64,000 nt of DNA from an uncultured Actinomycetes bacterium (lineage in GTDB: Bacteria; Actinomycetota; UBA4738; HRBIN12), in the NCBI GenBank assembly GCA_963704725.1, contig OY969934.1, positions 1,685,138 through 1,749,137 on the forward strand. The letters run 5' to 3'. The translations under genes and the position numbers were made by a program. Under the pieces are notes generated by a model. It worked only from the letters and a program-made list of their open reading frames with translations, was not told where the DNA came from and did not search any database. Every line of letters begins with the position of its first letter. The first letter of the stretch is position 1. Shown piece after piece: positions 2,626 through 27,641 of this stretch.

Positions 2626-2706
2626 GGTCGGATGCTATCCCGGCGCCGTTCGCTCACGTCGAGGGCTTGCGCCCACTCGAACGTATGTTCTATCCTCATC
2701 GCTTCG

Positions 2707-4713
2707 ATGGCCGACCAACTCTTCGAGATCGCCCGGCGCACGTTCGACACCCCCGAGTTCCGGGGGATGGAGTTCATCGAGACCGATTGCAGGACCATCA
2801 TCAACCGCGTCCCCGGCTCGTACCTCCCGTTCAACTGGACGATCAACCCGTACCGGGGATGCTCGCATGCGTGTAGTTACTGCACGTCCGGCGATACCCC
2901 GGTCCTGATGGCCGATGGCCGGACGAGGCCCATCGCGAAGGTCGAGGTGGGGGATCGGATCTACGGGACCGTGCGCCGGGGTCGGTACCGGAGGTACGTC
3001 ACGACGCCGGTACTCGCCCATTGGTCCACGGTGAAGCCCGCCTATCGGGTCACACTCGAGGACGGCACCGAGCTGATCGCGAGCGGCGACCACCGGTTCC
3101 TCACGGAGCGAGGATGGAAGCACGTCACCGGGAAGGGTTCGGGCCGCGAGTGCCGGCCCTTCCTGACCACGAACAACGAGCTCCTGGGCGTCGGCGGCTT
3201 CGCCGTAGCGCCTGCTGAGGATGACGACTATCGGCGCGGCTACCTCACGGGCATGATCCGTGGCGACGGACAGATCGGCTCGTACGCGTACCCGGCAAGG
3301 AACGGACGGTCCCGAGCAGTGCATCGATTCCGGCTCGCTCTCGTGGACGGCGAGGGGCTCGATCGGGCGCGCATCTATCTGTCCCGGGAGGGAGTCGAGA
3401 CGACGCCGTTTCAGTTCCAGCAAGCGACCGGGCGGCATCGGCGGATGGGCGCTATCCGATCGCAGCGTCGGGCCGACGTCGAGCGGATCCGCGAGGTCAT
3501 CGCCTGGCCGGCCCGATCCACGAACGCTTGGCGGAAGGGGTTCCTCGCCGGCGTCTTCGACGCCGAGGGGAGTTTCAGTGGCACCCTCCGCATCGCGAAT
3601 TGCGACCCGCAGATCCTCGGCACGACGACTGCGTGTCTGGACGCGCTCGGCTTCTCGCATCGGTTGGAGACGACCATCGACCGCAAGGGGCTGGCCTACG
3701 TCCGGCTCCTCGGCGGTCTCCGAGAGGTCCTCCGCTTCTTCCACACGGTCGATCCCGCCATCACGAGGAAGCGAGACATCGCGGGGATCGCGATCAAGAG
3801 CGATGCGCCACTCCGGCTCGTCTCGGTCGAGCCGCTCGATCTCGACCTCCCCTTGTACGACATCACCACCGGGACCGGGGACTTCATCGCGGACGGCGTG
3901 GTGAGCCACAACTGCTTCGCGCGGCCCACGCACACGTTCCTCGACATGAACGCCGGGAGCGACTTCGAGCGCAAGATCGTGGTGAAGGTCAACGCGCCCG
4001 ACGTGCTGCGCCGGCAGCTCGCCGCCAAGCGCTGGAAGGGCGAGGGCATCGCCATGGGGACCAACACCGACCCGTACCAGCGGGCCGAGGGGCGCTACCG
4101 GTTGATGCCGCGGATCGTGGAGGCCCTCGCGGACTTCCGGAACCCGTTCTCGATCCTGACCAAGGGCACGCTGATCCTGCGCGATCTCGACCTGCTCGTC
4201 GACGCGGCGCGGGTGGCCGACGTCGCCACCGCCTTCTCCATCGGCACGCTGGACGAGGACGTGTGGCGGCGGACGGAGCCCGGCACGCCGCACCCGCGCA
4301 AGCGGATCGAGGCCGTCGCGGCTCTCAACGCCGCCGGGATCCCGTGCGGGGTCCTCATGGCGCCGATCCTGCCGGGGATCAGCGATCACCCCCGTCAGCT
4401 CCGGGAGGTCGCCCGGGCGGCGATCGACGCAGGCGCGACCCACGTCTCCCCGATCCTCCTGCACCTGCGGCCGGGTGTCCGCGAGGAGTTCATGCCCTGG
4501 CTGGCCGAGCACTACCCGGATCTCGTGGAGCGATACGAGGCGATGTACCGGACGCCGTACGCGTCGCCGGCGGATCGCAAGCGGGTCGGATCGACCGTCG
4601 GGAGCATCGTCCGGTCGCTCGGAGGCACCCGGCGGGAGCGGGCGGCTCCGCATCGGTGGTCCGGCCGGGGAGACGGCGGCGGCGGGTCCGGGGAGCAGCT
4701 CAGCCTCGTCTGA
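2707..4713 (+). CDS. radical SAM protein of the SplB / Rv2578c-like family (COG1533), interrupted by an in-frame intein
   Basis: ORF 2632..4713. N-extein ends RGCSHACSY and C-extein resumes CFARPTHTFLDMN, reconstituting the family CxxxCxYCFAR Fe-S motif. Start taken at MADQLFEIARR (2707); 2632 is the alternative. Confidence 0.85.
   Translation: MADQLFEIARRTFDTPEFRGMEFIETDCRTIINRVPGSYLPFNWTINPYRGCSHACSYCTSGDTPVLMADGRTRPIAKVEVGDRIYGTVRRGRYRRYVTTPVLAHWSTVKPAYRVTLEDGTELIASGDHRFLTERGWKHVTGKGSGRECRPFLTTNNELLGVGGFAVAPAEDDDYRRGYLTGMIRGDGQIGSYAYPARNGRSRAVHRFRLALVDGEGLDRARIYLSREGVETTPFQFQQATGRHRRMGAIRSQRRADVERIREVIAWPARSTNAWRKGFLAGVFDAEGSFSGTLRIANCDPQILGTTTACLDALGFSHRLETTIDRKGLAYVRLLGGLREVLRFFHTVDPAITRKRDIAGIAIKSDAPLRLVSVEPLDLDLPLYDITTGTGDFIADGVVSHNCFARPTHTFLDMNAGSDFERKIVVKVNAPDVLRRQLAAKRWKGEGIAMGTNTDPYQRAEGRYRLMPRIVEALADFRNPFSILTKGTLILRDLDLLVDAARVADVATAFSIGTLDEDVWRRTEPGTPHPRKRIEAVAALNAAGIPCGVLMAPILPGISDHPRQLREVARAAIDAGATHVSPILLHLRPGVREEFMPWLAEHYPDLVERYEAMYRTPYASPADRKRVGSTVGSIVRSLGGTRRERAAPHRWSGRGDGGGGSGEQLSLV
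2881..3912 (+). mobile_element. intein (344 aa) with LAGLIDADG-type homing endonuclease domain
   Basis: Block A CTSGDTPVLMADG at the N-terminal splice junction; block B-like SGDH; two LAGLIDADG-like motifs (GYLTGMIRGDG, KGFLAGVFDAEGSF); C-terminal DFIADGVVSHN followed by +1 Cys. Coordinates from ORF arithmetic (aa 84-427 of the 2632 ORF). Confidence 0.85.
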
Positions 4714-8283: not shown

Positions 8284-11200
8284 CTAGCCCGACCTCACCC
8301 CATCGACGGCCGGGCGGCCGCGTGCGAACGCTCGACGAGCGGATCCGCCGGTGTCCTCGGGGGGCTGACCGGGCAGGAACACGCGGAACGAGGCTCCCCC
8401 TCCCTCCCGCTCCTCGACCCAGGCGCGGCCGCCGTGCAGATCCGTGAACATCGCGACGAGCGAGAGCCCGATCCCCGTCCCGGGGGCATGGGGGGAGGCC
8501 GTCGGGCCCTGGCGGAAGGGTTCGAAGATCGCGGACTGCAGCTCCTCGGGCACACCGGGACCGTCGTCCTCGACGGCCAGGAACGCCCCGCCGCCACCGG
8601 CCCACACGCGGACGAAGATCGTGACGTCCGGACCCGTGTGCCGAACGGCGTTCATGACGAGGTTCTCCACGATCCGCTCCACCTTGGGTCCGTCCACGGG
8701 GACGACGACGGGCTCGGCCTCGACGGACACGAACCGGTCTCCGAGCTCCAGGGAGTCGACGGCCCCTCGGACGAGCGCGCCCACGTCGGTCGGCCGGAGC
8801 TGTGGCGTCACGTTCCCGCGCGAGAGTCGGTCGATGTCGAGCAGATCCTTCAGCAGCCGGTCGAGCTTGCGGGCGTTCTGCGCCACGCGCCGGGTGAGGT
8901 CGCGGCGATCCTCGGCGGAGAGCTGCTGCTGCTCGAGCGTGAGCGAGAGGCCGAGGATCGACGTCAGCGGACTGCGGAGCTCGTGTGAGACGGCGGCCAG
9001 GAACGTGTTCTTCATCTCGTCCAGGGCGCGAAGGCCCTCGGCGGCTTCGCGCTCGCGCCGCTCGCTGTCGCGGAGGGTCTGCTCCGCGAGCTTCCGCTCG
9101 GTGATGTCGAACATCACGCCCTGGACGAACAGCGGCGTGCCGTCCTCGTCGAGGACGAACGCGGTCTCGTCGTGCACCCAGGCCTCCCGGCCGTCCGGCG
9201 TCACGATGCGGTATTCGCCCTGCCACGACCGGCCCGCCTCGGCCGCCTCGAGGTAGCTCCGGCGCATCTCGTCGCGGAACTCGGGGGTCATCAGGTCGAG
9301 CCACAGGGCGGGCTCGTCGATGAAGCGCTGGGACGGCACGCCCATGATCTGCTGGATCTGCGGGCTCACGTAGACGGTCTTCATGGACTGGTCGGGGCGA
9401 TCGACGTAGATCGCCGCGGGAACGTGCTCGACGATTGCCCGGTAGCGCGCCTCGGTCTCGCGAAGCTGCTCCTCGGCCTGCCGTCGCTCGGTGATGTCGA
9501 GCATCACCCCCTGCGAGAACAGGATGTTGCCCTCGGCATCGCGCACCACCGTCGCGTGGTCCGTGACCCACATCCAGCGTCCGTCCTTGGCCCGGAAGCG
9601 GTACTCGAGCACGAACGGGTCGCCGTCGCGGCCGTGCCGCTCGGCGGCGGCGAGCACCCGTTCGCGATCGTCGGGGTGGATGCCGTCGATCCACAGGTCG
9701 GGATCCGACGTCCACTCCCGCGGCATGTAGCCGAACAGGGCCTCGATCTGCGGGCTCACGTACATCTTCGTGTGCCGCTCGTCGACCGCGTCGACGTAGG
9801 TGACGGCCGGCATGCTCTCGACGAGCGAGCGGTACCGCTCCTCGGCCTCACGCAGGTGGTGCTCGGCCGTCTTCTGCGGCGTGATGTCGAACCGGATGCC
9901 CTGCCAGTACAGGGGGTTGCCGCCGTCGTCGCAGATCAGGGCGGCCTCGTCGTGGACCCAGATCCACCGGCCGTCCCTGTGACGCTGCCGGTACTCGACG
10001 ACGAACGGCTCGCCCGTGCGCTCGGCCCGCTCGTCGGCCTCCATGGCCCGGGCTCGATCGTCCTGATGGAGGGTCTGGAGCCAGCGCTCGTAGTCGGACT
10101 CGCCCCACTCCTGGACCGTGTAGCCGGTCAGCCGTTCGAGCTGCGGGCTCATGTATGTGAGCGGCGCGCCGGGACCGAGACCTTGGATGTAGGTCACGGC
10201 GGGGATCGTCTCGACGAGCTTGCGGTATCGGAGCTCGGCCTGGGTCCGAAGGGTCTCGGCCCGGGCCCGTCCGATGGCCGCCCCCAGGGTGTCGGCGGCG
10301 GCCTTCAGGGCGTCGACCTCCGGAGCCGGCCACTCGCGCTCGGTCTCGCAGTCGTCCAGCGCCAGGAACCCCCACCACTCGTCGCCCAGGAAGACCGGCA
10401 CGAGGACGCGCGAGCGGACGCCGTCGTGCAGGGGCCCCGTCCGTTCCGCCGCGGGGAAGTCGCGGGTCCGACCCTGGAGCGTCCGTCCCGAGGAGAGGGC
10501 GGCCTGCCACCGGACGTGACCCTTGGCGTAGGGCGACGGCTCCTCGGCCTGCGGGAGCGGCAGGACGCCGTCGGCGACCCACTGGTGGCGCAGGCGCATC
10601 CCGACCTCGCCGCCCTCGAGGGTCTCGTTCTCGAACAGCGAGACCCGCCCGGACGCCGAAGCGCGACCGAGCCGTTCCAGGACCTCGGGCAGCACCGGCT
10701 GCCATTCATGGGCCTTGAGCAGTCGCTCGGCCGCGAACCCGGCCGCCTCGAGGACGGCGTCGCGCCGCGACAGCATCTCCTCGGCGATCTTGGCCTGCGT
10801 GACGTCGATGAGGACCCCCTGCCAGCGGTTGGGCGAACCGTCCTCGTGCCGCAGCAGGACGGCCTCGTCGCGGACCCAGACGACCCGGCCGTCCCGGCCC
10901 AGGAAGCGGTACTCGACCGAGAACGGATCGCCGGTGTCGTTCGTCCGCCGCGACTCCTCGAGCACCCGCTCCCGGTCGTCGGGGTGCAGGTGGTCGATCC
11001 AGAACCTGGGATCGGCCGTCCTGGCTTCTGGCGGGTAGCCGAACATCTGCTCGTACTGCGGGCTGACGTAGATCGCCGTGCTCGTGTCGTCGACGGCGTC
11101 CTGGTACACGACGACGGGGAGCTGCTCGACGAGCGTCCGGTAGGTCTCCTCGGCCTCTCGAAGGCGAAGCTCGGCCTCCTTGCGCGCCGTGACGTCGATG

Positions 11201-12204
11201 CACACGCCCTGCCAGACGCTGCGGTCGAACGAGGGCCCGGGCTCCACGATCCGGGCGTCGTCGTGGATCCACACCACCCGGCCATCCTTGGCGATCATCC
11301 GGTACTCGAGGCTCCACGGTGCGCCCCGCCGCTCGCTCGCCGCGATCTCCTCGAGCGCGCGTTCGCGATCGTCCGGGTGCACGACGCGGTGCCACATCTG
11401 CGCGTCCCGGGTCCACTCGGCCTGCGAGTAGCCGAGGAGCCGCTCGATGCCCGGGGAGATGTACCGCTGCCCCGGGTCGTCCCGGCGATCGTCGACGTAG
11501 GTCACGACGGGCATGTGCTCCACGAGCGATCGATAGCGCTCCTCAGCCTCGCGCACCTTGTCCTCGGCCGCCTTGCGATCGGTGATGTCGAACACCACGC
11601 CCTGGAACATCGGGTGCCCCCGCTCATCGCGGCCGACCGGTACCGCCTCGTCGCGCACCCAGAGCGTCCGTCCATCTCGAGTGGACATGCGGTACTCGGC
11701 GCGGAAGGGGGAGGAGGTCCGCTCGCACGCCTCCCACTCCGCCATCACCGGACCGACGTCGTCGGGGTGCATCAGCCGGGACCAGAGCAACGGGTCGTCG
11801 AACTCGTCCTGCCCGTAGCCGAGGAGCGAGCGCACCTGGGGGCTGACGTACGTGGCGGGGGCCTCACCGACGCGATACGTCGCGTCCCACGTGTACGTGA
11901 CCGCCGGCATGTTCTCCACGAGCGCCCGGAACTGGGTCTCGGCGAGCTCGCGAGCGGCGGCCTCGCGCTGGGCCGAGCGCCACTGCAGGAGGCTGAACAC
12001 GGCGAGCCCGACGGAGGCCAGGATCGGGGCGAGGATCACCTCGTCGACGGCTCCGTTGAACCGCTTCGTCAGCCAGTCCTGCGTTCCGGAGAAGACGTCG
12101 GTTGCGGCGCCGAACCAGAGCACGCCGGAAACGGCGAGCGAGATCAGCAGCAGATCCCGCAGCGCCCTCCACCCACGGCGAGGCCGACTCTCGGTGTCCT
12201 TCAT
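8284..12204 (-). CDS. membrane-anchored multi-PAS sensor histidine kinase
   Basis: Track ORF 8284..12468; start taken at [12 protein letters not shown] (12204) to avoid the E1-beta gene. Two N-terminal TM helices, at least seven PAS/PAC-like repeats (recurring PAVTYV / YVSPQ units), H-box [10 protein letters not shown], and a HATPase_c tail. Confidence 0.85.
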
Positions 12205-12292
12205 GGCATGCGAGCTCGTTGAATTGGTTATCGGCCGCTCGGGGGAGCACCTGAGAGGAGGGCGGGGAGAGAGGAGGGGCCGGTCGAGCCCG

Positions 12293-13279
12293 TCAGAACC
12301 GGGCCAGCTCGAGCATCCGGTCGAAGATCCGGTCCACGTTCGGCATGAACGCGTGCTCGAGGTTGGAGGCGAACCCCATCGCCGGGACGTCCGGCCCGCC
12401 GATGCGAACGAGCGGGCCGTCCAGGTCGAACATGGCCTCCTCGGCGATCGTGGCCACGATCTCTGCACCGGCGCCGTACGTGCGGTTGTCCTCGTACACG
12501 ACCATGGCCTTGCCCGTCTTGCGGACCGAGGCGAGGATCGTCTCCTTGTCCAGGGGGCTGATCGTCCGGACGTCCACCACCTCGGCGGACGCCCCCTCCT
12601 GGTCCTGGAGCCGCGAGGCGGCCTCCAGACAGTGGTGGAGCATGAGCCCGTAGGCGACGACGGTCAGGTCCGTGCCCTCGCGCTTGACGTCGGCGGGTCC
12701 GATCGGCACCTCGTACGGCTCGTCCGGGACCTCGCCCTTGATCAGCCGGTAGGCCCGCTTGTGCTCGAGGAACAGGACGGGGTCGGGGTCCTTGATGGCG
12801 GTCCGTAGGAGCCCGGCCGCGTCGTGGGGGGTCGACGGGATGACCACCTTGATCCCGGGGATGTGCCCGTAGAGGGCCTCGATCGACTGCGAGTGGTACA
12901 GCGCGCCGTGGACGCCGCCGCCGAACGGCGTGCGGATGACCATGGGAAGCCCGAAGTCGCCGTTGGTCCGGTAGCGCATCCGGGCGACCTCGGAGACCAT
13001 CTGGTCGAACGCGGGGTGGATGAAGTCCGCGAACTCGATCTCGGCGACCGGGAGGAGGCCGTGCAGGGCCATCCCCACGGCCACGCCGATGATCCCGCCC
13101 TCGGCGAGCGGGGTGTCGATCACGCGCCGCTCACCGAACTCCTCGAGGAACCCCTGCGTGACCCGGAACACGCCGCCCCGAGCGCCGACGTCCTCTCCGA
13201 GCACGATGAGGCGCTCGTCGGCGGCCATCTGCTCGTGCAGGGTGTCGTGGATCGCGGTGACCAGGTTCTTCTCGGTCAC
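12293..13279 (-). CDS. 2-oxoacid dehydrogenase E1 component, beta subunit
   Basis: 328 aa; transketolase-like pyrimidine-binding and C-terminal domains typical of E1-beta (pyruvate, acetoin or branched-chain type not distinguishable here). Confidence 0.9.
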   Translation of the reverse strand: MTEKNLVTAIHDTLHEQMAADERLIVLGEDVGARGGVFRVTQGFLEEFGERRVIDTPLAEGGIIGVAVGMALHGLLPVAEIEFADFIHPAFDQMVSEVARMRYRTNGDFGLPMVIRTPFGGGVHGALYHSQSIEALYGHIPGIKVVIPSTPHDAAGLLRTAIKDPDPVLFLEHKRAYRLIKGEVPDEPYEVPIGPADVKREGTDLTVVAYGLMLHHCLEAASRLQDQEGASAEVVDVRTISPLDKETILASVRKTGKAMVVYEDNRTYGAGAEIVATIAEEAMFDLDGPLVRIGGPDVPAMGFASNLEHAFMPNVDRIFDRMLELARF

Positions 13280-17104: not shown

Positions 17105-17467
17105 TCAGCTGCCCGTCGGGTGATGGTCGGCGTGCGATCCCCAGGGTCCGGCGGAGCCCGTCCACGGCGCCGTGCCGCCCATCATGCCGCCCATGCCCGA
17201 GGTCCCCTCCATCATCTGCGACATCTGCTCGTGCAGGGCGTCGCACTGGGCCGCGAGCTCGGCCGGCATCTGGTCGTGGAGCTGCCGCATCGCGGCCGAG
17301 TCGTGCATCGCGTCCATCGTCGCGGTCGACGGGGTGCCGTCCATCATCGACCCCATCGATCCCGGCCCGCCTCCGGTCGTCCACCCCGTGGATCCGTGGG
17401 CGAACCCGAGCGTCAGGGCGAGCACGAAGCCGAGCGCCGCCCCGAGCACGATCCATCGTCCCTTCAT
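17105..17467 (-). CDS. secreted Met/His-rich protein, putative periplasmic copper-binding protein
   Basis: 120 aa; signal peptide, then MxxM / MxxH-rich sequence (MDAMHDSAAMRQLHDQM, HEQMSQMMEG, GMGGMMGG) and a His-rich C-terminus. Start overlaps the upstream kinase stop. Confidence 0.6.
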   Translation of the reverse strand: MKGRWIVLGAALGFVLALTLGFAHGSTGWTTGGGPGSMGSMMDGTPSTATMDAMHDSAAMRQLHDQMPAELAAQCDALHEQMSQMMEGTSGMGGMMGGTAPWTGSAGPWGSHADHHPTGS

Positions 17468-18891
17468 CGTGAACCTCCTTGTTCTGCCCCGACCGTAGCC
17501 GGGGGCGATGAAGGCTCGATGAAGGCGCCGCGCGGGTGCGATGAGGGGCCGGGAAGCCGCACGGTGAAGGTGGTGCCGTGGCCGAGCTCGCTGGCGGCGA
17601 CCAGCTCACCCCCGTGGGCGAGCACGAGCTCCCGGGCCACGGTCAGGCCGATGCCGGAGCCTCGGGCGCGAACCCCGCTGCCCCGGAAGAACCGGTCGAA
17701 GACCCTGGGGAGCTCGTCGGGAGAGATCCCGGGTCCGGTGTCGGAGACGGCGATCACGGCGTCGTCCCCGTCGCGGCGAAGACTGAGGCGCACCTCGCCC
17801 TTCTCAGGGGTGAACTTGAGGGCGTTCGAGAGGAGGTTCGCGATCATCTGGCGGATCCGGGTGGCATCGGCCGGGATCTCGACGTCCTCGAGCTCGCCGG
17901 ACAGGCGGACGTCGCCCGCCTCGAAGGGCCCCTCGAACTCCCTCATCGCGTCCTCGATCACGTCTCGCAGCCGCGTCGACGTCCGGTTGAGCGAGAACCC
18001 GGCCGCATCTGCCGAGGCCAGCGTCTCCAGGTCTCCGACGAGCCGGGTCAGGCGGAGCGACTCCTCGTGCAGGGACGCGATGGCGGGGGAGCTGGGCTCG
18101 ACGACGCCGTCCTGGATCCCCTCGATCTGCGTGCGAAGGATCGCGAGCGGGGTGCGCAGCTCGTGCGCGACCTCCGCCGCGAACGCGCGCCGGAGCCGAT
18201 CCTCCTCCTCGATCGTGTCGGCCATCGAGTTGAAGGCCCTGGCCATCTCCCCGAGCTCGTCCGGTGAGTCGTCGTCCACCCGCTGCGATCGCTCGCCGCT
18301 CGCCATGGCCCGGGCCGCTCGGGTGAGCTCGCGGGCCGGCGCCGTGGCCTTGCGCGCGAGCACGAGTCCCGCGGCCAGGGCCGCGAGCGCCGCCGCGACG
18401 CCGCCGACGAGGAGCATGTGGTTGACCGACGACCGGAAGGCCAGATCCTGGGGGAGCAACCCGGGGGTGGGGAGCCGGACGAGCGCGGTCCCCACGACCA
18501 CTCCGTCGACGCTGATCGGCAGCCGACGGGTGGGCCCAAGCGGCCCGCTCCCCATCATCTGGCGGTGCATCGCCGAGACGCGTCCGCCCTCACCCGCGGA
18601 TGGCTCCCAGACGGCGATCCCGTCGGCATCGAGGAGTCGCAGGGTGCCGCCGTCCATCATGGCGAGCGACTCCAGCGTGCGAAGGTCGGTGGCGTTCCAG
18701 CCCCCCATGCGCTCGTACGAGTCGGCCAGCCCGGCGACCAGCTGCTCCTGCCGCGCGCGTTGCTGGTCCTCGAGATAGGAGGAGAACCGGCTTTCGAAGG
18801 AGACGTTGACGAGGATCGCCGTGAGCGCCGCCGCCGCGATCCCGACGCCCGTGAACGCCGCGGCGAGGCGGAGCGCGAACGACCTACGCAT
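17464..18891 (-). CDS. sensor histidine kinase (TM-HAMP-HisKA-HATPase_c), putative metal-responsive
   Basis: Track ORF 17464..18996; start taken at MRRSFALRLAAAFTG (18891). H-box AEVAHELRTPL; C-terminal GSGIGLTVARELV. Confidence 0.85.
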   Translation of the reverse strand: MRRSFALRLAAAFTGVGIAAAALTAILVNVSFESRFSSYLEDQQRARQEQLVAGLADSYERMGGWNATDLRTLESLAMMDGGTLRLLDADGIAVWEPSAGEGGRVSAMHRQMMGSGPLGPTRRLPISVDGVVVGTALVRLPTPGLLPQDLAFRSSVNHMLLVGGVAAALAALAAGLVLARKATAPARELTRAARAMASGERSQRVDDDSPDELGEMARAFNSMADTIEEEDRLRRAFAAEVAHELRTPLAILRTQIEGIQDGVVEPSSPAIASLHEESLRLTRLVGDLETLASADAAGFSLNRTSTRLRDVIEDAMREFEGPFEAGDVRLSGELEDVEIPADATRIRQMIANLLSNALKFTPEKGEVRLSLRRDGDDAVIAVSDTGPGISPDELPRVFDRFFRGSGVRARGSGIGLTVARELVLAHGGELVAASELGHGTTFTVRLPGPSSHPRGAFIEPSSPPATVGAEQGGSR

Positions 18892-19582
18892 CGGCCCTGG
18901 GGCCGAACTTGTAGCCGACGCCCGGGACCGTGAGGACGAATCGAGGCTCCTTCGGATCGTCGCCCAGCTTGCGCCGGAGGTTCTTGACGTGAGCATCGAT
19001 GGTGCGCTCGTACCCCTCGTAGTCGTACCCCTGCACCTTGGTGACGAGCTCGTAGCGTGAGAACGCCCTGCCGGGATGAGCGGCCAGCGCCAGGAGCAGG
19101 TCGAACTCGCTCCGGGTGAGGTCGGCGGGCCTGCCGTCGACCGAAACCTCCCGACCGACCCGATCGATCACGAGCGCGCCGGATGCGAACGACGCGGGGC
19201 GGTCCTCTCTGCTCCCGCCCGCGCGCCGGAGCACGGCCTCCACCCTGGCGACGAGCTCACGTGGGCTGAAGGGCTTGACGAGATAGTCGTCCGCGCCCAG
19301 TCGCAGCCCGTTCACGCGGTCGTCCTCCGAGGACTTAGCGGTGAGCATGATGACCGGGAGATCGGAATGAGCCCGGATCGACCGTGCGACCTCCTCGCCG
19401 GCGATGTCCGGAAGCATGAGGTCGAGCACGAGCAGGTCGGGATGGGCTCGCTCCACCGCCTCGAGCGCCCGCGCGCCCGTGTCGGCGACGAGGACGGAGT
19501 ACCCCTCGCGCTCCAGGTATGAGCGGACGAGCTCCCGGATCTTCCGCTCGTCGTCCGCGACGACGATCGTGGCCGTTCCCAT
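18884..19582 (-). CDS. OmpR-family response regulator
   Basis: Track ORF 18884..19708; start taken at MGTATIVVADDE (19582). Receiver domain plus C-terminal winged-helix (VLTVPGVGYKF). Confidence 0.9.
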   Translation of the reverse strand: MGTATIVVADDERKIRELVRSYLEREGYSVLVADTGARALEAVERAHPDLLVLDLMLPDIAGEEVARSIRAHSDLPVIMLTAKSSEDDRVNGLRLGADDYLVKPFSPRELVARVEAVLRRAGGSREDRPASFASGALVIDRVGREVSVDGRPADLTRSEFDLLLALAAHPGRAFSRYELVTKVQGYDYEGYERTIDAHVKNLRRKLGDDPKEPRFVLTVPGVGYKFGPRADA

Positions 19583-19685
19583 GGTCGGCACCTCATCGGT
19601 CTGTCGTGACGTCTCAGGGTGCGGCCCTGCTCCCGGACCCTTCAGGGCCGGCAGGCCCCGGCGGCGGGGGTCGATCGGCCCGGCC

Positions 19686-20351
19686 TCAGTCGAGTTCCGG
19701 GAGCGCATCGAGCAGGTCCCTCGCCGACACGAACATCGACGGGTACTCCTGCGTCCAGCGGATCCGTCCCGCGGCGTCGACGAGCACGAAGCCGTGGCCC
19801 GGGAGGTTGGCGTGCATGCCGTGGCCGATCATCCCGTACGCCTGGGAGACCGAGGTGTCGGCATCGCTCAGGTACGGCGTTGTGATGCCGAAGCGCTGGA
19901 GCTCGGGCACAACGTCGCTCACTGGGTTCGCCACGATCGGGACGACCTCGATCCCCGCGGCGGCGAATCCGTCGGCGTCCTTCTCGATCTCGGTCATCTG
20001 GTAGAAGCACGCGTCGCAGCCGACTCCCTCGTTGAAGTACAGGAGCACGTTGCGTCCCAGGAAGCTCGAGATCGACACGCTCGTCCCCGACGTGGACGGA
20101 AGCGTGAACGCCGGAGCGGCCCCTTGGGCCCCTCCCGCCGGGGCCTGGCGCCCGCCGAAGTACAGCATCAGCCCCAGGGCCGCGATCGCGGCGACACCGA
20201 CGAGCGGACCGAAGGGGCTGCGCTTACGCGCGACCCCCCGGGATCGCCTCCTCCGCGTGCCGGCCGGTCTCTGCCCGGGGTGCGTGGCAGTGGGCTTCGC
20301 TCGATGGGGGGGTTCCCAGCGGGCTCGCTTCCCCTTCGTCTTGGTGGTCAT
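19686..20351 (-). CDS. membrane-anchored thioredoxin-like / redoxin protein (TlpA/ResA-like)
   Basis: Track ORF 19686..20447; start taken at MTTKTKGKRA (20351). One TM helix, then thioredoxin fold with GCDAC motif. Overlaps the 3' end of the CcdA ORF by about 128 nt. Confidence 0.7.
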   Translation of the reverse strand: MTTKTKGKRARWEPPHRAKPTATHPGQRPAGTRRRRSRGVARKRSPFGPLVGVAAIAALGLMLYFGGRQAPAGGAQGAAPAFTLPSTSGTSVSISSFLGRNVLLYFNEGVGCDACFYQMTEIEKDADGFAAAGIEVVPIVANPVSDVVPELQRFGITTPYLSDADTSVSQAYGMIGHGMHANLPGHGFVLVDAAGRIRWTQEYPSMFVSARDLLDALPELD

Positions 20352-21231
20352 GATCGGGTCCTCCTGAGGGTTCGGCGGAGCGGTGTCGGAGCGCGACGGC
20401 CATGAAGGCGCCGGCCAGTGCGAGCAGGCCGAGGCCGAGGACCGCATCGGGGACGGGGTCGAGGAACCTGACGACCCGGACGGACTCCGACGACAGCCAG
20501 CGGCCGATGGCGAGCTGGAACCCCGGCGCCACGGTCGTGTCGCCCCGGACGGCGATGAAGAGCACGAAGAAGCCCATCGCGGCGAAGGCCGCGGCGACCG
20601 CGATGTTCACGGTGTTCGTGGCGACCCGGACCGGTCCGAGCCGGATCGCGACCGGCTTGGCCCGGAACAGGCGCCGCTCGCCGAGCTTGAGGCGGTCCCA
20701 GAACAGCGCCATGAGGAGCAGTGGGAAGACCATCCCGAACACGTAGGCCGCACCGAGCGTCGTCGCTCCGATCAGCGAGCCGGAGAGCGCCGACAGGGTC
20801 ATGACCCCGGCGAGCACAGGAGCGCAGCACGACGAGGCCACGCCGGAGAAGACGCCGAGGGCGTAGACGCCGGCCGCGTCGGTCCGGCGGACGGAGGGCG
20901 CGCGGATGAAGGACGGGAGGCTCCAGGTGTGCCCGGAGAAGGCGAGCGCGGCGAGCGCGAGCATCAGGATTCCGCCGCCGAGGAAGAAGCCGAGGTGGTA
21001 CCGGGCGAGCGTCGTCGAGACGAACCCGATGCCGAGGGTCACGGGCAGCAGCACGGTCCCGATCCCGAGGGCGAAGACGAACGTGAGCGGCAGCAGGCGC
21101 CACCGCCGCGCCTGGACCGCGGAGGCCAGGTACGCCGGAAAGAGGAACACGATGCAGCACGGGCTGAACAGCGCGATGCCGCCCGCGAAGAACGCGGCGA
21201 GGATCGATCCGGTCGTGAGCAGACCGCCCAT
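20224..21231 (-). CDS. ccdA: cytochrome c biogenesis / thiol-disulfide transporter CcdA (DsbD-like)
   Basis: Track ORF 20224..21459; start taken at MGGLLTTGSILAAFF (21231). Polytopic, with conserved Cys in FSPCCIVFLFPAYL and SSCCAPVLAGV. Confidence 0.8.
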   Translation of the reverse strand: MGGLLTTGSILAAFFAGGIALFSPCCIVFLFPAYLASAVQARRWRLLPLTFVFALGIGTVLLPVTLGIGFVSTTLARYHLGFFLGGGILMLALAALAFSGHTWSLPSFIRAPSVRRTDAAGVYALGVFSGVASSCCAPVLAGVMTLSALSGSLIGATTLGAAYVFGMVFPLLLMALFWDRLKLGERRLFRAKPVAIRLGPVRVATNTVNIAVAAAFAAMGFFVLFIAVRGDTTVAPGFQLAIGRWLSSESVRVVRFLDPVPDAVLGLGLLALAGAFMAVALRHRSAEPSGGPDHDHQDEGEASPLGTPPSSEAHCHAPRAETGRHAEEAIPGGRA

Positions 21232-21491
21232 CAGATCCGCTCGACCGTTCGCTCGAGCACCTTCCGGAGCTTCTTCGCGGGAAGCCGTCCCGAGCTGAAC
21301 GGGGTCCCGTCCACGAGCACGAGCGGCCACATCCCCGGCCGGTGCCGCTCCACGAGCTCGAGCCCGTCTTGCGATGCCGCATCGAGCTCCCGGACCCGCA
21401 GTGGGAACTCGGCCCCGAGCTCCGCCAGTCGGGCCCGAGCGTCGGCGCAGAAGTGGCATCCGAGCGCGGTCACGAGCACCACGTCGGTCAT
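21231..21491 (-). CDS. glutaredoxin-like small thioredoxin-fold protein
   Basis: 86 aa, C-terminal part of track ORF 21231..22346, starting MTDVVLVTALGCHFCADARA (CxxC). Translationally coupled to ccdA (overlapping stop/start). Confidence 0.7.
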   Translation of the reverse strand: MTDVVLVTALGCHFCADARARLAELGAEFPLRVRELDAASQDGLELVERHRPGMWPLVLVDGTPFSSGRLPAKKLRKVLERTVERI

Positions 21492-21742
21492 CGGCGCGAT
21501 CCGCGGACCCAGGCGTCGGGGGACGGTCGCCGGATGCGGTAGGGCATCCACAGCAGGAGCGGGAACCACAGCAGCAGGCCCGCGAGCAGGAACGACACGA
21601 GCGGTGCCCCCAGGACGATCGCGGCGAGGAGCCCGCTGCCGATCCCGCTCATGACGGCCACGGCGAGCACACGGGTCGAACGCCAGCCGCTTGGGCGGGC
21701 GCCGGCCCGGAGATCGTGCCGGATGGCTCGAAGCTCTCTCAT
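21488..21742 (-). CDS. small membrane protein, function unknown
   Basis: Track ORF of 84 aa with two hydrophobic helices; stop overlaps the glutaredoxin-like start. Start uncertain (internal Met possible). Confidence 0.4.
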   Translation of the reverse strand: MRELRAIRHDLRAGARPSGWRSTRVLAVAVMSGIGSGLLAAIVLGAPLVSFLLAGLLLWFPLLLWMPYRIRRPSPDAWVRGSRR

Positions 21743-21831
21743 CGGTGACCAGCTTCGGTTCCGGCTGTGAAGGAGCGGTGAAGCGAGGGCGAAAGCCGGA
21801 TGAGGAGGTCCGAGGGTGCCGGCCCGTTTGC

Positions 21832-21856
21832 TTAGGATACCCCCCTATGGTATGCT
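21832..21856. promoter_or_regulatory. CsoR-operator-like inverted repeat overlapping a promoter-like element
   Basis: TTAGGATACCCCCCTATGGTATGCT: ATACC and GGTAT arms flank a C-tract, the architecture of CsoR/RcnR operators; about 35 nt upstream of the csoR start and followed by an AAAGGAG RBS. Confidence 0.4.
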
Positions 21857-21890
21857 GCTCGGGCAGGTGCCCACGAAAGGAGCGTCCGCC

Positions 21891-22166
21891 GTGGCCGGGT
21901 ACAGCATGAACAAGAAGGACCTCCAGGATCGCCTGCGGCGGATCGAGGGGCAGATCCGGGGTCTCCAGCGGATGGTGGAGGCCGACCAGTACTGCATCGA
22001 CATCCTGACCCAGGTGAACTCGGCAACGGCGGCACTCAAGTCGGTCGGCATGGGGCTCCTCGACGACCACGTGCGCCACTGCGTGAAGGAGAGCATCGAG
22101 GCCGGCAGGAGCGACGAGAAGGTCGAGGAGCTGCTGGCCGCGGTGGCTCGGTTCGCGGGGAAGTGA
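21891..22166 (+). CDS. csoR: CsoR/RcnR-family metal-sensing transcriptional repressor
   Basis: Track ORF 21816..22166; start taken at GTG 21891 (about 8 nt after GGAG), ATG 21906 is the alternative. Candidate C-H-C ligand set (YCID...DDHVRHC). Confidence 0.85.
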
Positions 22167-24322
22167 CGGAGATGGCCGAGACCACGATCGGCGACGACGT
22201 CCGCGAGCTCCGGCTCGACGTTCTCGGTATGACCTGCGGCTCCTGCGCCGCGCGGGTCGAGAAGACCCTGAACAAACAGGCGGGCGTGGAGGCGTCCGTG
22301 AACTTCGCGACGGGGGAGGCGCTCGTCCGTCTCTCGAACGGTGCACCCACCTTCGACCTACTTCGCGAGGCGGTGCGGGCTCGCGGGTACGACGTGCGCG
22401 AGCATGTCGACGAGGCCGAGGAGGCCGCTCGACGTGACGAGCGGGCCTGGCTGCGGCGCCTGGTCATCGCCTGGCCCCTCGCCATCGTCACGATGGCCAT
22501 CTCGATCCCCTTCATGGAGCAGACGTGGGCCCGGTGGACCGCGCTCGCGCTGGCCGCGCCGGTGCAGTTCTACGCGGGCTGGCCCTTCCTGAAGGGGGCG
22601 GCCATCCGCGCACGGAACTTCAGCGCCAACATGGACACGCTGATCGCGGTGGGCACGCTCGCCGCGTTCGCGTACTCGGTGTGGGCCCTGTTCGGCACCG
22701 AGGACCTGTACTTCGACACCTCGGCGGTGATCGTCGCCTTCATCGCGCTCGGCCGGTGGCTCGAAGCGCGGGCGAAGGGCCGGGCGTCGCAGGCCATCAA
22801 GCGGCTGCTCGAGATGGGGGCCAAGGAGGCTCGCGTCCTGCGCGACGACAAGGAGCTCCGGCTGCCGGTCGACGCCGTCAAGGTGGGGTGGCTCGTGAAA
22901 GTCCTTCCGGGCGAGAAGATCCCGGTGGACGGCCGCGTCGTCGACGGGGCCTCGGCGGTGGACGAGTCGATGCTCACCGGCGAGTCGGTGCCGGTCGAGA
23001 AGACCACCGGCGACGACGTGGCCGGGGCGACCGTCAACCTCGACGGCGTGATGGTGATCGAGGCGACGCGCGTCGGGCAGGACACGGCGCTCGCGCAGAT
23101 CGCCCGGCTCGTCGCCGAGGCGCAGGGCTCGAAGGCGCCGATCCAGCGCCTGGCCGACCAGGTGGCGGGGATCTTCGTCCCCGTCGTCATCGCGATCGCC
23201 GCGGTCACCGCGGTGGGGTGGTACCTGGTGGACGGGACCGTGCGCGACGCGCTCGTGCCCGCCGTCGCCGTCCTCATCATCGCGTGCCCCTGCGCGCTCG
23301 GGCTGGCCACGCCGGCCGCGCTGATGGTCGGCACGGGGCGGGGAGCTCAGCTCGGAGTCCTGATCCGGGGCGCCGAGGTCCTCGAGCGCTCGCGCAAGGT
23401 GGACACGATCGTCTTCGACAAGACCGGGACGCTCACCGAGGGCCGGATGCGGCTGGTCGAGACGGCCGGCTGCGTCGAGACCCTGGAGCGTGCGGCCGCC
23501 GTCGAGGCCGGGAGCGAGCACCCCATCGCCCGCGCGGTCGTCGAGGGCGCCGCCCGGCGCGGGGTCGTCGTTCCGGCCGCAGAGGGTTTCCGCTCGATCG
23601 CGGGTCGCGGTGCCCGGGCGACCGTGGACGGGCACGAGGTTCTGGTGGGGCGACGTTCGCTGCTCGAGTCCGAGGGACTGCACGTCCCGCCGTCGATCGA
23701 GCGCTACGCCGGAGGGTTCGAGGCCCAGGGTCACACGGTGTTCTGGGTCGGGTGGGGCGGCGAGGCGGCCGGGGTCGTCGCGGTCGCCGACACCCTGAAG
23801 GAGGGCGCGAACGAGGCGGTCACCCGGTTGCACGGGCTCGGCGTCCGCGTCGCGATGATCACCGGCGACAACCGCACCACCGCCGAGGCGATCGCGTCGC
23901 AGGTGGGCATCGATCGGGTCCTGGCCGAGGTGCACCCCGAGGACAAGGTCGAGGAGATCCGCCGGCTCCAGGGCGAGGGGCACGTCGTCGCCATGGTCGG
24001 CGACGGGATCAACGACGGGCCCGCGCTCGCTCAGGCCGACCTGGGCATCGCCATCGGTACCGGCACGGACGTCGCGATCGAGGCGAGCGACATCACGCTC
24101 ATCTCCGGGGACCTGGACGGCGTCGTGCGCGCCGTCGAGCTCTCGCGGACGACGTTCCGGACGATCCAACAGAACCTGGCCTGGGCGTTCGGCTACAACG
24201 TGGCCGCGATCCCGCTCGCCGCGTTCGGGCTGTTGAACCCCATCATCGCCGGGGCGGCGATGGCGGCCTCGTCGGTGTCCGTGCTGACGAACTCGTTGCG
24301 GTTGCGGCGGTTCGGGAGATGA
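22163..24322 (+). CDS. copA: copper-translocating P1B-type ATPase
   Basis: 719 aa; HMA domain [14 protein letters not shown] motif CPC ([13 protein letters not shown]), [17 protein letters not shown]. Start overlaps the csoR stop. Confidence 0.95.
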
Positions 24323-26739
24323 GGCACCCCACGGATCACCACGGGCCGGCGACGGTGGTTCTCCACGTCGGCGGGCTCAACTGGGCCTCCCAGAAGGGCG
24401 TGGCAGAGACCGTCCTCAGGCGCCGGCCCGGCGTGACCTCCGTCGACGCGAACCCCGTGGCTCAGACCGCCACCGTCACCTTCGACCCGGCACGAACGTC
24501 CGTGGCGGACCTTCAACGGTGGTTGCGGGAGTGCGGGCTCCAGTGCGCCGGGCAGTCGGTCCCCACGCACCTCTGCGACCCCATGGCGGAGCCGGTCACC
24601 GGAGACGAGAGCCGCGAGACCGCGATGGAGCACGGAGGCCACGAGATGGCGACGGATGCCGGCCTTCGCTCGCCGCACGAGACGACGGGGCACGGCGGGG
24701 ACGCGGGGATGTCGATGGAGCAGATGGTCCGTGACATGCGGAACCGGTTCGTGGTCGCGGCCGTGCTGTCGGTCCCGATCCTGCTGTGGTCGCCGATCGG
24801 GCGGGACGTCATCGGCTTCCACGCCGCAGCGCCCCTCGGCCTCTCGGATGCGTGGTTCCAGCTCCTGCTGAGCCTGCCGGTCGTCTTCTATTCGGGGTGG
24901 ATCTTCTTCGACGGCGCGTACCAGGCCCTGCGACACGGAACGCTCGACATGATGGTGCTGGTCGCGGTGGCGATCGGGGCGGGGTGGTCGTACTCGGTGG
25001 TCGCGACGATCGCCGGAGGCGAGGAGGTGTTCTTCGAGGCCGCCGCGGTGCTGGCCGCGTTCGTGCTCCTGGGGCACTGGTTCGAGATGCGGGCCCGCGG
25101 CGGTGCGAACGACGCGATCCGCACGCTGCTCGATCTCGCGCCGGCGATGGCGGTGGTGCTCCGTGAGGGCGAGCCCGTCGAGATCCCGACGGCCGAGGTG
25201 GTCGTGGGTGATCTCCTCCTGGTCCGGCCGGGGAGCAAGATCGCGGTCGACGGGGTCGTCGAGGAAGGGGAGACCGACGTCGACGAGTCCATGGTCACCG
25301 GCGAGAGCTTGCCGGTTCACAAGACATCCGGATCCGGGGTCATCGGCGCGACGATCAACCGGAACGGAACGATGCGCGTGCGCGCCACGAAGATCGGGGC
25401 CGACACGGCCCTGGCCCAGATCGTGAAGCTCGTCCAGGAGGCCCAGAACTCCAAGGCGCCCGGACAGCGGCTCGCCGACCGGGCGGCCTTCTGGCTCGTC
25501 CTGGTCGCGCTGATCGGCGGCACCGGGACCCTCCTGGCATGGCTCGCCGCCGGCCGCCCGCTGGACGAGGCCATCCTGTTCGCCATCACCGTGGTCGTCA
25601 TCACGTGTCCGGACGCGCTCGGCCTGGCCACTCCCACGGCGATCATGGTCGGCACCGGTCTCGGCGCCGCCCGGGGCATCCTGTTCAAGAACGCGGTGGC
25701 GCTGGAGGAGAGCGCCCGGATCCAGGTCGTCGTCGTGGACAAGACCGGGACCCTGACCAAGGGGGAGCCGGAGGTCACGGACGTGATCGCCGAAGGCCTC
25801 CCGGACGATGACCTCCTCCGCCTCGTGGCCGCGGTCGAGCGGGAGTCCGAGCACCCGCTGGCCGAGGCGATCGTTCGCCACGCCGACGCCCTGGGGCTCC
25901 GGGCCGCCGGGGCCGAGGCGTTCGAGAACGTTCCCGGCCACGGCGCGTTTGCCACCGTCGAAGGGCGGCGCGTCGCCGTCGGGAACCGCAGGCTCATGGA
26001 GCGCGAGGGGATCGCCCTGGGGGCGCTGGAGGACCGCCGCCGGCAGCTCGCGGCGAACGGCAAGACCGCGGTGATCGCGGCGGTGGACGGCCGCGCGTGC
26101 GCGGTCATCGGCGTCGCCGACGCGGTCCGGCCGTCGTCCCGCGCCGCGGTGTCGGCGCTCGCCGAGACCGGGGTGGAGGTCGTCATGCTGACCGGTGACA
26201 ACGAGGCCACGGCCGCGCGGATCGCCCGAGAGCTCGGCATCGGCTCGGTCATCGCCGAGGTGCTCCCCGGCGACAAGGCGGCCAGGATCGCCGAGCTCCA
26301 GCGCGGCGGGCGCCGGGTGGCCATGGTCGGCGACGGCGTGAACGACGCGCCGGCGCTCGCGCAGGCCGACCTCGGCATCGCCATCGGCGCCGGGACGGAC
26401 GTCGCGATCGAGACGGCGGACGTGGTCCTGATGCGCTCCGACCCGCTCGACGTGGCGACGGCGCTGCGGATCGGGCGAGGGACGCTCCGGAAGATGCGGC
26501 AGAACCTGGGCTGGGCCGTGGGCTACAACGCCATCGCCCTGCCCATCGCGGCGGGGGTCTTCGAGCCCGCCTTCGGGCTCACGCTGCGCCCGGAGATCGC
26601 CGCCCTCTCGATGTCGGGCTCGAGCCTGATCGTGGCCGTGAACGCGCTCGCGCTGCGGAGACTCCGACTGCCCCGCGCGGTGGGTGATGGGGGCGAGACG
26701 GCCCCGGCGACGGTGGAGCTCGTGGAGCGGGCGGCGTGA
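24319..26739 (+). CDS. second heavy-metal P1B-type ATPase (CopB-like) with CPD motif and Cys-less HMA-like N-terminus
   Basis: In-frame C-terminal 806 aa of track ORF 22525..26739; ATG at 24319 overlaps the copA stop (ATGA). DKTGTLT and [10 protein letters not shown] present; ion-path motif reads [12 protein letters not shown]; N-terminal [13 protein letters not shown] is an HMA fold without the CxxC; His/Met-rich linker. Confidence 0.85.
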
Positions 26740-26810
26740 GCGCCGAGGAATCCCGAGCGCTCCCTCGGGTGTTGGCAAGGGGGGGAACGTGGCGAACGTG
26801 AGTACTCTGA

Positions 26811-27641
26811 GTGGAGGAACGGATGAACCGAGCAGATGAGATGACCGAGATGCGAGTGCCCGAACCCGTCGTGATCGAGGCGACCGATCAGAACTTCATG
26901 GACACGGTCGTCGAGGAGTCCAAGCGCCGACCCGTCGTGGTCGACCTGTGGGCGACCTGGTGCGGTCCGTGCCGCACCCTCGGGCCGATGCTGGAGAAGG
27001 TGGCCGGCGAGCGCGGCGGGGACTTCCTCCTGGCCAAGCTCGACGTCGATGCCAACCCCTACACGGCCGGACAGTTCGGGGTGCAGAGCATCCCGACCGT
27101 CGTCGGCTTCAAGGACGGGCGGCCGGTGGACGGGTTCGTCGGCGCGATCCCGGAGGCCATGATCAACGAGTTCGTCGACCGCCTCCTGCCCACGGTGGCG
27201 GATCTCGGCGCGCAGCAGGGACTGGAGCGCGAGCTGGACGGGGACCTGCCCGACGCCGAGAAGACCTACCGGGACGCGCTCGAGACCGACGCCGGCAACC
27301 GGGAGGCGAGGCTCGGCCTCGGCCGCGTCCTGGCGGAGACCGGTCGGGAGGACGAGGCGCGGGAGACCCTGATGCCCCTGCTGCCCGACCCCGACGCCGA
27401 GCGCGTGCTGGCCGAGCTCGAGGTCCGCTCCTGGGCGGAGCTCTCGGAGCCCGGGACGCTCGCCAGCGCCAAACGGCTCGCCGCACAGGGCCGGTTCCGC
27501 GAGGCGCTCGACGGCATGCTCGGGTCGCTCTCGGACGACCCGGACGCGCGCCCGGCCGTGCTCGACGTGTTCGCGATCCTTGGGGACGAGGACCCCCTCG
27601 TGACCGAGTACCGGCGCAAGCTGGCGAACGCGCTGTTCTGA
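26811..27641 (+). CDS. thioredoxin-domain protein with C-terminal TPR-like region (YbbN-like)
   Basis: 276 aa; WCGPC active site followed by a helical repeat region. Confidence 0.8.
   Translation: MEERMNRADEMTEMRVPEPVVIEATDQNFMDTVVEESKRRPVVVDLWATWCGPCRTLGPMLEKVAGERGGDFLLAKLDVDANPYTAGQFGVQSIPTVVGFKDGRPVDGFVGAIPEAMINEFVDRLLPTVADLGAQQGLERELDGDLPDAEKTYRDALETDAGNREARLGLGRVLAETGREDEARETLMPLLPDPDAERVLAELEVRSWAELSEPGTLASAKRLAAQGRFREALDGMLGSLSDDPDARPAVLDVFAILGDEDPLVTEYRRKLANALF

Follow-up and report, generated by a model that had tools for sequence, protein, structure and literature searches.

Short motifs in the membrane domain of P1B-type ATPases serve to sort these pumps and to predict the metal that they export, and a gene in a 64,000-nucleotide (nt) stretch of DNA from an uncultured Actinomycetes bacterium (contig OY969934.1 of assembly GCA_963704725.1; hereafter the window) raises the question of what such a pump transports when its ion path reads Cys-Pro-Asp (CPD) in place of the Cys-Pro-Cys (CPC) of CopA. 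The gene (24319–26739, + strand) encodes an 806-amino-acid (aa) protein, identified as a P1B ATPase from its translation and from profile and structure matches, and follows csoR and copA. Our analysis suggests that it is likely to encode a working ATP-driven copper exporter of a CopB-related CPD subtype, as the third cistron of a CsoR-repressed operon.

The gene encodes an intact pump. Its start, an ATG that shares ATGA with the copA stop codon, is supported by a Met in the first alignment column in 102 of 120 homologues, and the catalytic motifs are all in place: TGES (residues 327–330), the DKTGT phosphorylation motif with D474 (residues 474–478; 25738–25752, +; read from the translation), SEHPL (510–514) and a GDGxNDxP-type motif (671–680). 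In the M4 segment, VVVITC430-P431-D432-ALGLATP, the codons tgt ccg gac (25606–25614, +) place C430-P431-D432 at the unwound centre of the helix, just as a first-pass annotation of the window had read it, with CPC in the upstream copA. Alignment located the remaining membrane motifs: G-H253-W-F-E256-M257 in M2, with the entry-site Glu between His and Met (25072–25089, +); N729-x5-G-Y736-N737-x4-P742 in M5 (GYN-AIAL-P; 26503–26544, +); and R757-P-E759-x5-M765-S-G-S768-S769-x5-N775 in M6 (26587–26643, +). An AlphaFold model (predicted local distance difference test (pLDDT) 83.5, predicted template modelling score (pTM) 0.78) has eight membrane helices (MA, MB and M1–M6), with M4 broken exactly at residues 430–432, and its top Foldseek matches are the CopA pumps of Legionella pneumophila (LpCopA, 4bbj) and Archaeoglobus fulgidus (AfCopA, 7r0g; E about 1e-53). 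The protein thus combines the catalytic motifs, the eight membrane helices and the Cys-Pro-x at an unwound M4 that define a P1B-type ATPase.

Among the metal types in this family, scores and motifs point towards copper. The protein reached 596.6 bits against TIGR01525 (cut-off 346) and 588.7 bits against TIGR01511 (cut-off 397), as opposed to 299–343 bits against the NCBIfam ZntA models, whose cut-offs are 1005–1240; in sequence searches of the PDB, LpCopA scored best (549 bits), with AfCopA also among the best, versus 273 bits for CadA and 245 for ZntA. CopA (L. pneumophila 3rfu/4bbj, A. fulgidus 7r0g) is therefore the best solved match in both sequence and fold, helices MA and MB included, and no full-length structure of the CopB lineage was found in the PDB. 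When solved ATP-binding domains were compared, CopA-like and CopB-like domains scored 226 and 227 bits and did not separate. A gap-free alignment to LpCopA residues 79–735 (~45% identity) lays C430-P-D432 over C382-P-C384, with D432 at C384, and retains the equivalents of LpCopA M148, E189, E205, D337, C382, Y688, N689, M717 and S721; the two pumps thus share entry and exit residues and the Y-N and M-x-x-S-S ligands. They differ in the Asp that replaces the second Cys of CPC, in an N-terminal HMA domain without CxxC and in the position of the window protein outside the CPC clade. A Zn/Cd- or Co-type pump was rejected on the low family scores and the copper-type M5 and M6 motifs, with neither the P1B-2 nor the P1B-4 signatures and family-level scores matched. 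The Zn/Cd/Pb pumps ZntA and CadA (P1B-2) do offer a precedent for a carboxylate in a P1B site, in that an essential membrane Asp is a metal ligand, although that Asp lies on M6, paired with an M5 Lys, and M4 still reads CPC; the CPD pump is unlike them in its copper-type M5 and M6 motifs and far lower scores.

The Asp is fixed across a large group of relatives. All of the 120 best database matches (72–81% identity, mostly Actinomycetota) carried CPD and GYN, and 119 carried MSGSS; in a library of representatives at 50% identity, the nearest full-length proteins were CPD, followed by CPH (Cys-Pro-His) and CPC proteins at 41–50% identity. A search from a 49%-identical CPD protein of Candidatus Aquicultor (P0124) likewise returned CPD in 120 of 120 matches, from Deinococcus, Caldilineaceae, Anaerolineae, Gemmatimonadaceae, Planctomycetaceae, Rubrobacter, Calditrichia and mycobacteria, with M6 sub-types MSGSS, MSAST, MAAST and MSVSS. 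CPD was also present in 47 of 48 loci from species-representative genomes (relatives of at least 62% identity), the 48th running off its contig, and D432 was invariant in a 64-sequence alignment that spans the whole CPD clade, as were M211, E240, E256, D387, Y736, N737, M765 and S768 of the Cu(I) pathway. Copies at 70–73% identity occur on 42 actinobacterial plasmids (for example, Rhodococcus jostii pRHL3, Nocardia farcinica pNF1 and plasmids of R. opacus and Mycolicibacterium gilvum), and relatives of a second CPD protein, at 63–66% identity, on proteobacterial plasmids, with Nitrobacter, Bradyrhizobium, Ralstonia, Variovorax, Roseovarius and Paracoccus among the matches listed; the motif was read in the Nitrobacter and Ralstonia copies and is CPD in both. 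The branch is thus common in soil Actinomycetota, is found also in Pseudomonadota, Chloroflexota, Deinococcota and others, and travels on large plasmids; databases label its members only 'heavy metal translocating P-type ATPase'.

Because D432 is invariant in every relative examined, CPD is neither chance nor error; it is a selected clade character and not an accident. That the motif stems from faulty sequencing, or from a copA copy that is inactive and decaying, is accordingly extremely improbable: it would be favoured by nothing but the unusualness of the motif and four N-terminal departures from the family consensus (E25Q, H75Q, M123T and H128D), and it would require two substitutions to turn a Cys codon (TGY) into GAC, in a residue that is invariant over hundreds of sequences from several phyla and in a gene whose frame and catalytic motifs are intact. 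We rejected an error, a pseudogene and a decayed copA on these grounds, and also a recent duplication of the adjacent copA, since the cores of the two pumps are 47% identical and the genes fall in different clades.

The lineage of the pump was examined in a neighbour-joining tree of pump cores (35 CPD, 4 CPH and 108 CPC sequences; the three CPx columns removed; 100 bootstraps), in which CPD and CPH proteins formed one clade, apart from the 108 CPC sequences, in 100 of 100 bootstraps; CPH alone was recovered in 100 of 100 and CPD alone in 58 of 100. CopB (Enterococcus hirae and A. fulgidus; CPH) thus appears as the sister group, and the one CPH anchor checked for type (P0220) was CopB-like, with 302 bits to the AfCopB ATP-binding domain versus 192 to that of AfCopA. 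Six residues are fixed in CPD and CPH proteins (H253, M257, L393, A397, G401 and P709; R, A, F, V, A and L, respectively, in CPC pumps) and are also invariant across the 64 diverse CPD proteins; H253 and M257, which flank the M2 entry Glu, are nearly absent from CPC pumps, and L393, A397 and G401 lie in M3. The two groups further share the N-x5-GYN-x4-P and P-x6-MSxS(T/S)-x5-N motifs and a His/Met-rich stretch directly before helix MA. In the genetic code, GAC lies one base from the His codon CAC and two from a Cys codon (TGY), which makes the relationship between CPH and CPD consistent at the codon level too. Given the tree and the shared fixed residues, we place the window protein in the CopB-related (P1B-3) lineage, as the CPD subtype P1B-3a.

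Other features set CPD pumps apart from CopB. One is the Asp that replaces the His following the M4 proline; CPD-specific, too, are R757 and E759, and the R-P-E lead-in to M6 is present in 225 of 246 CPD pumps, 6 of 108 CPC pumps and none of the four CPH pumps. Both residues are charged, lie where the ion path reaches its outer end and co-occur with D432. The N-terminus before MA is also longer, ~130 aa in the window protein versus ~45–95 aa in CPH proteins, where it consists of a short poly-His stretch and no more. CPD proteins generally carry an N-terminal ferredoxin-like domain that ends in a Cys motif, and ahead of the His-rich stretch stands an HMA-fold domain with its Cys/His cluster; one sub-clade (Rubrobacter and Roseiflexaceae) retains CxxC in the canonical loop.

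Measured against published classes, the protein is a mosaic. Of the P1B-1 features it has the YN(x4)P of M5 and the MxxSS of M6, and lacks CPC, an HMA domain with CxxC and grouping within the CPC clade; of the P1B-3 features it has common ancestry with CPH pumps, and lacks CPH itself and a His-rich, HMA-free N-terminus. Its M5 fits the P1B-3 signature N-x5-GYN-x4-P exactly and its M6 reads P-x6-M-S-G-S-S-x5-N, with Ser where the signature has Thr (signatures from Table 2 of Cubillas et al. and those of Arguello). All five features of P1B-3a are present. That name was given by Cubillas et al. 2017 to their group VIc, three rhizobial Cu-ATPases termed 'atypical', those of Xanthobacter autotrophicus, Nitrobacter hamburgensis and a Bradyrhizobium sp., which share CPD, YN(x4)P, MSGSS, a His-poor N-terminus and an N-terminus longer than that of CopB (PMC5552934); our search of the open-access literature for CPD motifs in P1B pumps found a relevant mention in that paper only. 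The first-pass annotation had known of no subgroup to which CPD could be assigned. This stands for the biochemically characterised types (CPC, CPH, SPC and others), but the motif has been published, and because the P1B-3a protein of N. hamburgensis plasmid 2 has the architecture of the window protein (CPD, GYN, MSGSS, a Cys-less HMA loop, the CGFHCAGEAVPKHIC cluster and an MGHG...MVRDMRNRF motif), an established, if biochemically uncharacterised, subgroup essentially accommodates it. P1B-3a was, however, defined on three alphaproteobacterial sequences, whereas the window protein comes from a high-G+C actinobacterial-type genome and a CsoR operon.

That operon is compact. The genes csoR (21816–22166), copA (22163–24322) and the CPD pump (24319–26739) follow one another on the + strand with overlapping stop and start codons. 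The csoR product matches Pfam Trns_repr_metal (PF02583; E 2.1e-30) and has the Cu(I)-binding triad Cys...His-x3-Cys (YCIDIL...DHVRHC), and copA encodes a canonical P1B-1 Cu(I) ATPase by its Pfam and NCBIfam matches, with an HMA domain bearing GMTCGSC, and with CPC, GYN and MAASS; as the annotation had indicated, the CPD pump departs from this neighbour in both its ion-path motif and its N-terminal metal loop. Read from the sequence, the promoter region of the operon contains a pseudopalindrome that resembles a CsoR operator, ATACCCCCCTATGGTAT (21837–21853), in which a C/G tract accompanies TAC-N9-GTA. It is the sole TACC..GGTA match in the window, and it agrees with the consensus ATATACCCCTNAGGGGTATAT published for type 2 CsoR of streptomycetes and with the required TAC-X9-GTA dyad (PMC3902906). 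Although the csoR open reading frame (ORF) opens at GTG 21816, the true start is likely to be GTG 21891 or ATG 21907, downstream of this operator. A scan of 21400–27000 for sigma-70 promoters and terminators found nothing; by eye, a weak TTGCTT-17 nt-TATGCT sequence might serve as a promoter overlapping the CsoR box.

Divergent from csoR, at 17464–21742 (−), lie genes for an 84-aa protein, a DsbD-type membrane protein and a TlpA-like redoxin, together with a response regulator and a HAMP histidine kinase, in a layout that resembles the copper-induced copRS/tlpA region of Corynebacterium glutamicum (PMC3140484); by analogy, these genes may form a second, extracytoplasmic copper-sensing arm. The CopB of C. 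glutamicum (Cg3281) is also copper-induced (PMC3140484).

A copper setting recurs at related loci. CsoR genes or operators accompanied the CPD gene in 18 of 47 loci (~38%): a CsoR-family ORF was present in 10, 9 of them with the Cys-His-Cys triad, and csoR stood directly beside the CPD gene in four (L009, L010, L033 and L040). In 7 of 35 evaluable loci, where chance would give 0.45, a stand-alone CPD gene was preceded by a strict TACCCC-N-GGGGTA box no more than 100 nt upstream, and in a further arrangement, which includes csoR-copZ-copA-CPD operons, boxes preceded upstream genes leading into the CPD pump (L017, L024, L028, L036 and L076, with a csoR ORF detected in all but L028). Recurrent neighbours were DUF305 proteins (11 loci), SHOCT proteins (6), two-component systems (5) and multicopper oxidases (4), and the pRHL3 and pNF1 islands combine CsoR, DUF305, CopZ-like, SHOCT and multicopper-oxidase genes with CsoR boxes. 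Proteobacterial copies are unlike the window gene: no CsoR boxes were found at them, and they adjoin genes for CopC, for a copper-binding protein of the four-helix-bundle type and for heavy-metal two-component systems, and are followed by that of a major facilitator superfamily (MFS) transporter. Overall, the regulatory context (a CsoR with the Cu(I) triad, a CsoR operator and copper-island neighbours) argues for copper as the physiological metal, and we infer that copper is what the pump transports.

From these elements, a working scheme can be proposed. Cytoplasmic Cu(I) would bind the Cys-His-Cys site of CsoR, which would then leave the TAC-N9-GTA operator at 21837–21853 and allow the three overlapping genes to be transcribed and, presumably by coupling, translated together. 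Copper would enter the pump at a cytoplasmic platform of M211, E256 and D387 (LpCopA M148, E205 and D337) and pass to a membrane site predicted to comprise C430 and D432 of the unwound M4, Y736 and N737 of M5 and M765, S768 and S769 of M6; D474 would be phosphorylated, and the ion would leave outwards past E240. As D432 stands where CopA has its second Cys and CopB its His, the site would be of mixed sulfur/oxygen character and not all-sulfur. In AfCopA, an anomalous Cu signal was seen at the second Cys of CPC, and a transient all-sulfur site is formed by this residue with the entry Met and the first Cys (PMC9433437). With an Asp at that position, the window pump should be unable to form such a geometry. 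Since a carboxylate is a hard ligand, a change in ion or redox preference, affinity or proton handling is chemically plausible, and the preferred species might plausibly become Cu(II) or another divalent ion.

Taken further, this chemistry would mean that the exchange of Cys or His for Asp retuned the site to a harder ion, such that the pump exports not Cu(I) but Cu(II) or another divalent metal such as Zn, Co, Ni, Fe or Mn, and complements the Cu(I)-specific CopA encoded upstream. We consider this unlikely, even though it would give meaning to an Asp that is invariant and clade-defining, to the charged pair R757 and E759, which CPD pumps usually carry where M6 has its outer end (225/246 CPD versus 6/108 CPC pumps), and to the presence of two P1B pumps per operon, which suggests non-redundancy. 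The acidic residue, directly behind the M4 proline, would correspond in position to the Glu with which Ca and Na/K pumps bind cations in their P-E-G-L motif, and the assignment of CopB has itself been revised, from the Cu(II) of Cubillas to a group that is reportedly Cu(+)-specific by the title of Purohit 2018. Against a harder ion, the site otherwise has the residues of a copper pump (Cys430, Tyr-Asn, Met765 and Ser-Ser), the match to CopA (549 bits) far exceeds those to ZntA (245) and CadA (273), with an NCBIfam ZntA score of 299 against a cut-off of 1240, the nearby regulators are CsoR proteins of the Cu(I) type with matching operators, and the neighbouring genes encode copper-handling proteins. 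Export of copper is the reading that these observations favour.

The N-terminal domain raises a second question, that of how the pump could sense or receive its metal. Residues 11–79 (24349–24555, +) form an HMA-like ferredoxin fold, as the first-pass annotation had proposed: Pfam HMA matches residues 14–73 (E 1.6e-10; 41.6 bits, cut-off 24.8), AlphaFold gives a beta-alpha-beta-beta-alpha-beta fold for residues 11–79, and the closest solved folds by Foldseek are the metal-binding domains of MerP, CopA and ATP7B (template modelling (TM) scores 0.72–0.84). The annotation was also right that CxxC is replaced, the GMxCxxC loop having degenerated in the alignment to GGLNWASQK (residues 18–26; 24370–24396, +; family consensus GLNWASEK versus G19-L-N-W-A-S-Q-K26 here), and that a His/Met-rich linker follows, with 4 His and 7 Met in residues 89–140. 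Its description of the domain as cysteine-less was mistaken, in that C72, C76 and C86, three of the five Cys of the whole protein, lie with H84 at the C-terminal edge of the domain, in a cluster C72-G-x-(H)-C76-x-G-x3-P-x-H84-x-C86 defined by alignment (24532–24576, +). C72, G73, C76, G78, P82, H84 and C86 were invariant in 74 of 74 aligned relatives, including those with just 35–42% N-terminal identity, and H75 is conserved in at least 90%. In the AlphaFold model, C72 sits at the end of helix alpha-2 and C76 within strand beta-4, and confidence is low over residues 81–88, as expected because the site would need metal.

The linker (24583–24750, +) ends in a motif conserved in the alignment before MA (H125 to F144), in which G124, H125, D139, M140, R141, R143 and F144 were invariant and M123, M131, M133 and M136 at least 90% conserved among the 74 relatives. 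In Nocardia relatives it has grown into long (GHGGHA)n repeats, which fits a metal-binding role: two CPD pumps of ~1180–1235 aa (L054 5932–9483 and L044 4968–8675) are examples, that of L054 having ~250 aa of (GHGGHA)n and (DHG)n repeats in the linker and ~160 aa inserted in the nucleotide-binding domain, and that of L044 having its extra length aligned to the same linker position. An intein in these long proteins was considered and rejected in favour of the repeats and the nucleotide-domain insertion. The window protein itself is off the family consensus at four candidate N-terminal ligands (E25Q, where E occurs in 115 of 120; H75Q, H in 116; M123T, M in 117; H128D, H in 91), which may point to relaxed N-terminal metal binding in its lineage. 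In Actinomadura luteofluorescens (L001), a stand-alone 84-aa HMA-like protein, whose Cys-less loop (LRGIPWAGDES) is of the type found in the N-terminal domain of the pump, is encoded ~750 nt downstream of a CPD pump (11248–11502, −); it may represent a spun-off domain or a partner protein.

By analogy, the HMA-fold domain without CxxC probably has a structural or regulatory role, as has been proposed for eukaryotic copper pumps and their pump-proximal metal-binding domain (PMC10973460). The C-x3-C-x7-H-x-C cluster and the His/Met linker would most likely constitute the regulatory or metal-sensing module, in a domain that has lost the CxxC itself.

Two copper pumps in one operon could also divide their labour by rate and not by ion. 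Bacterial Cu(I) pumps are known to fall into two functional classes (PMC7558416), and the CPD pump might accordingly supply copper at a low rate and with high affinity to extracytoplasmic copper proteins, like CopA2, CcoI or FixI, while the upstream CopA detoxifies in bulk. Such a role, which we think quite improbable, would suit the recurrent operons that pair the CPD pump with a CPC CopA (the window, L024, L028, L036 and L076, with fragments in L017 and L021), the multicopper oxidases that often adjoin and the DsbD-type and TlpA-like genes divergent from the window operon. It sits poorly with the majority of loci, where a solitary CPD pump follows a CsoR box of its own, an arrangement with the logic of detoxification, with carriage on large resistance plasmids from polluted soils and with the lack of phylogenetic kinship to the CPC-type CopA2 and CcoI. 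The pairing with CopA nevertheless hints at a non-redundant role for the CPD pump.

Several points weigh against a copper exporter of the CopB-related lineage under CsoR control, the reading that we prefer. For soft Cu(I), a carboxylate makes a poor ligand, and induction by Cu(I) does not identify the species that is pumped. The CsoR link reaches just ~38% of the loci, with proteobacterial members using other regulators, and our search of the open-access literature found no assay of a member of the CPD clade. The phylogeny, too, has a bootstrap of 58% for CPD monophyly, and is a neighbour-joining tree with four CPH sequences only and a CPC sample drawn from the best matches to the query. A more ambitious proposal, which we advance tentatively and regard as doubtful, is that CPD pumps are a distinct, widespread and horizontally mobile P1B subgroup whose Cys/Asp/Met membrane site selects a copper species different from that of CopA or CopB (Cu(II), or Cu(I) with another stoichiometry or proton coupling) or a broader set of metals, with metal sensing relocated to the C-x3-C-x7-H-x-C cluster.

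Elsewhere in the window, a 693-aa radical-SAM protein (2632–4713, +) contains an intein with a LAGLIDADG homing-endonuclease domain; within the iron-sulfur motif CxxxCxxC, the insertion falls exactly on the third Cys (GCSHACSY/CTSGDTPVLMADG ... GVVSHN/CFARP). A type I restriction-modification system comprises HsdM (49870–51816, +) and an HsdR-like helicase/nuclease subunit of 1167 aa (56075–59578, +) with a C-terminal Schlafen AlbA_2 domain, and an HNH/DUF222 protein is encoded at 48131–49321 (−). A very large sensor histidine kinase of 1394 aa, which has a GAF domain and numerous PAS domains (8284–12468, −), is unrelated to the CPD finding.

Taken by itself, the window holds an ordinary copper-resistance operon with two pumps, and it is the clade to which the second pump belongs that is of interest: widespread, mobile and a natural experiment on the position of selectivity in copper pumps. 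Membrane motifs are used to sort P1B pumps and predict their metal, and this branch always has Asp at a defining position. The species transported by CopB has been disputed between Cu(II) and Cu(I), the CopB group having been termed Cu(II) pumps by Cubillas et al. (PMC5552934), and a natural His-to-Asp series in one lineage offers a clean test of the selectivity position, with the relocated Cys/His cluster on the HMA fold as a second testable feature. If either the altered metal site or the relocated cluster proved to function as proposed, the CPD pumps would represent a new functional class in the P1B scheme.

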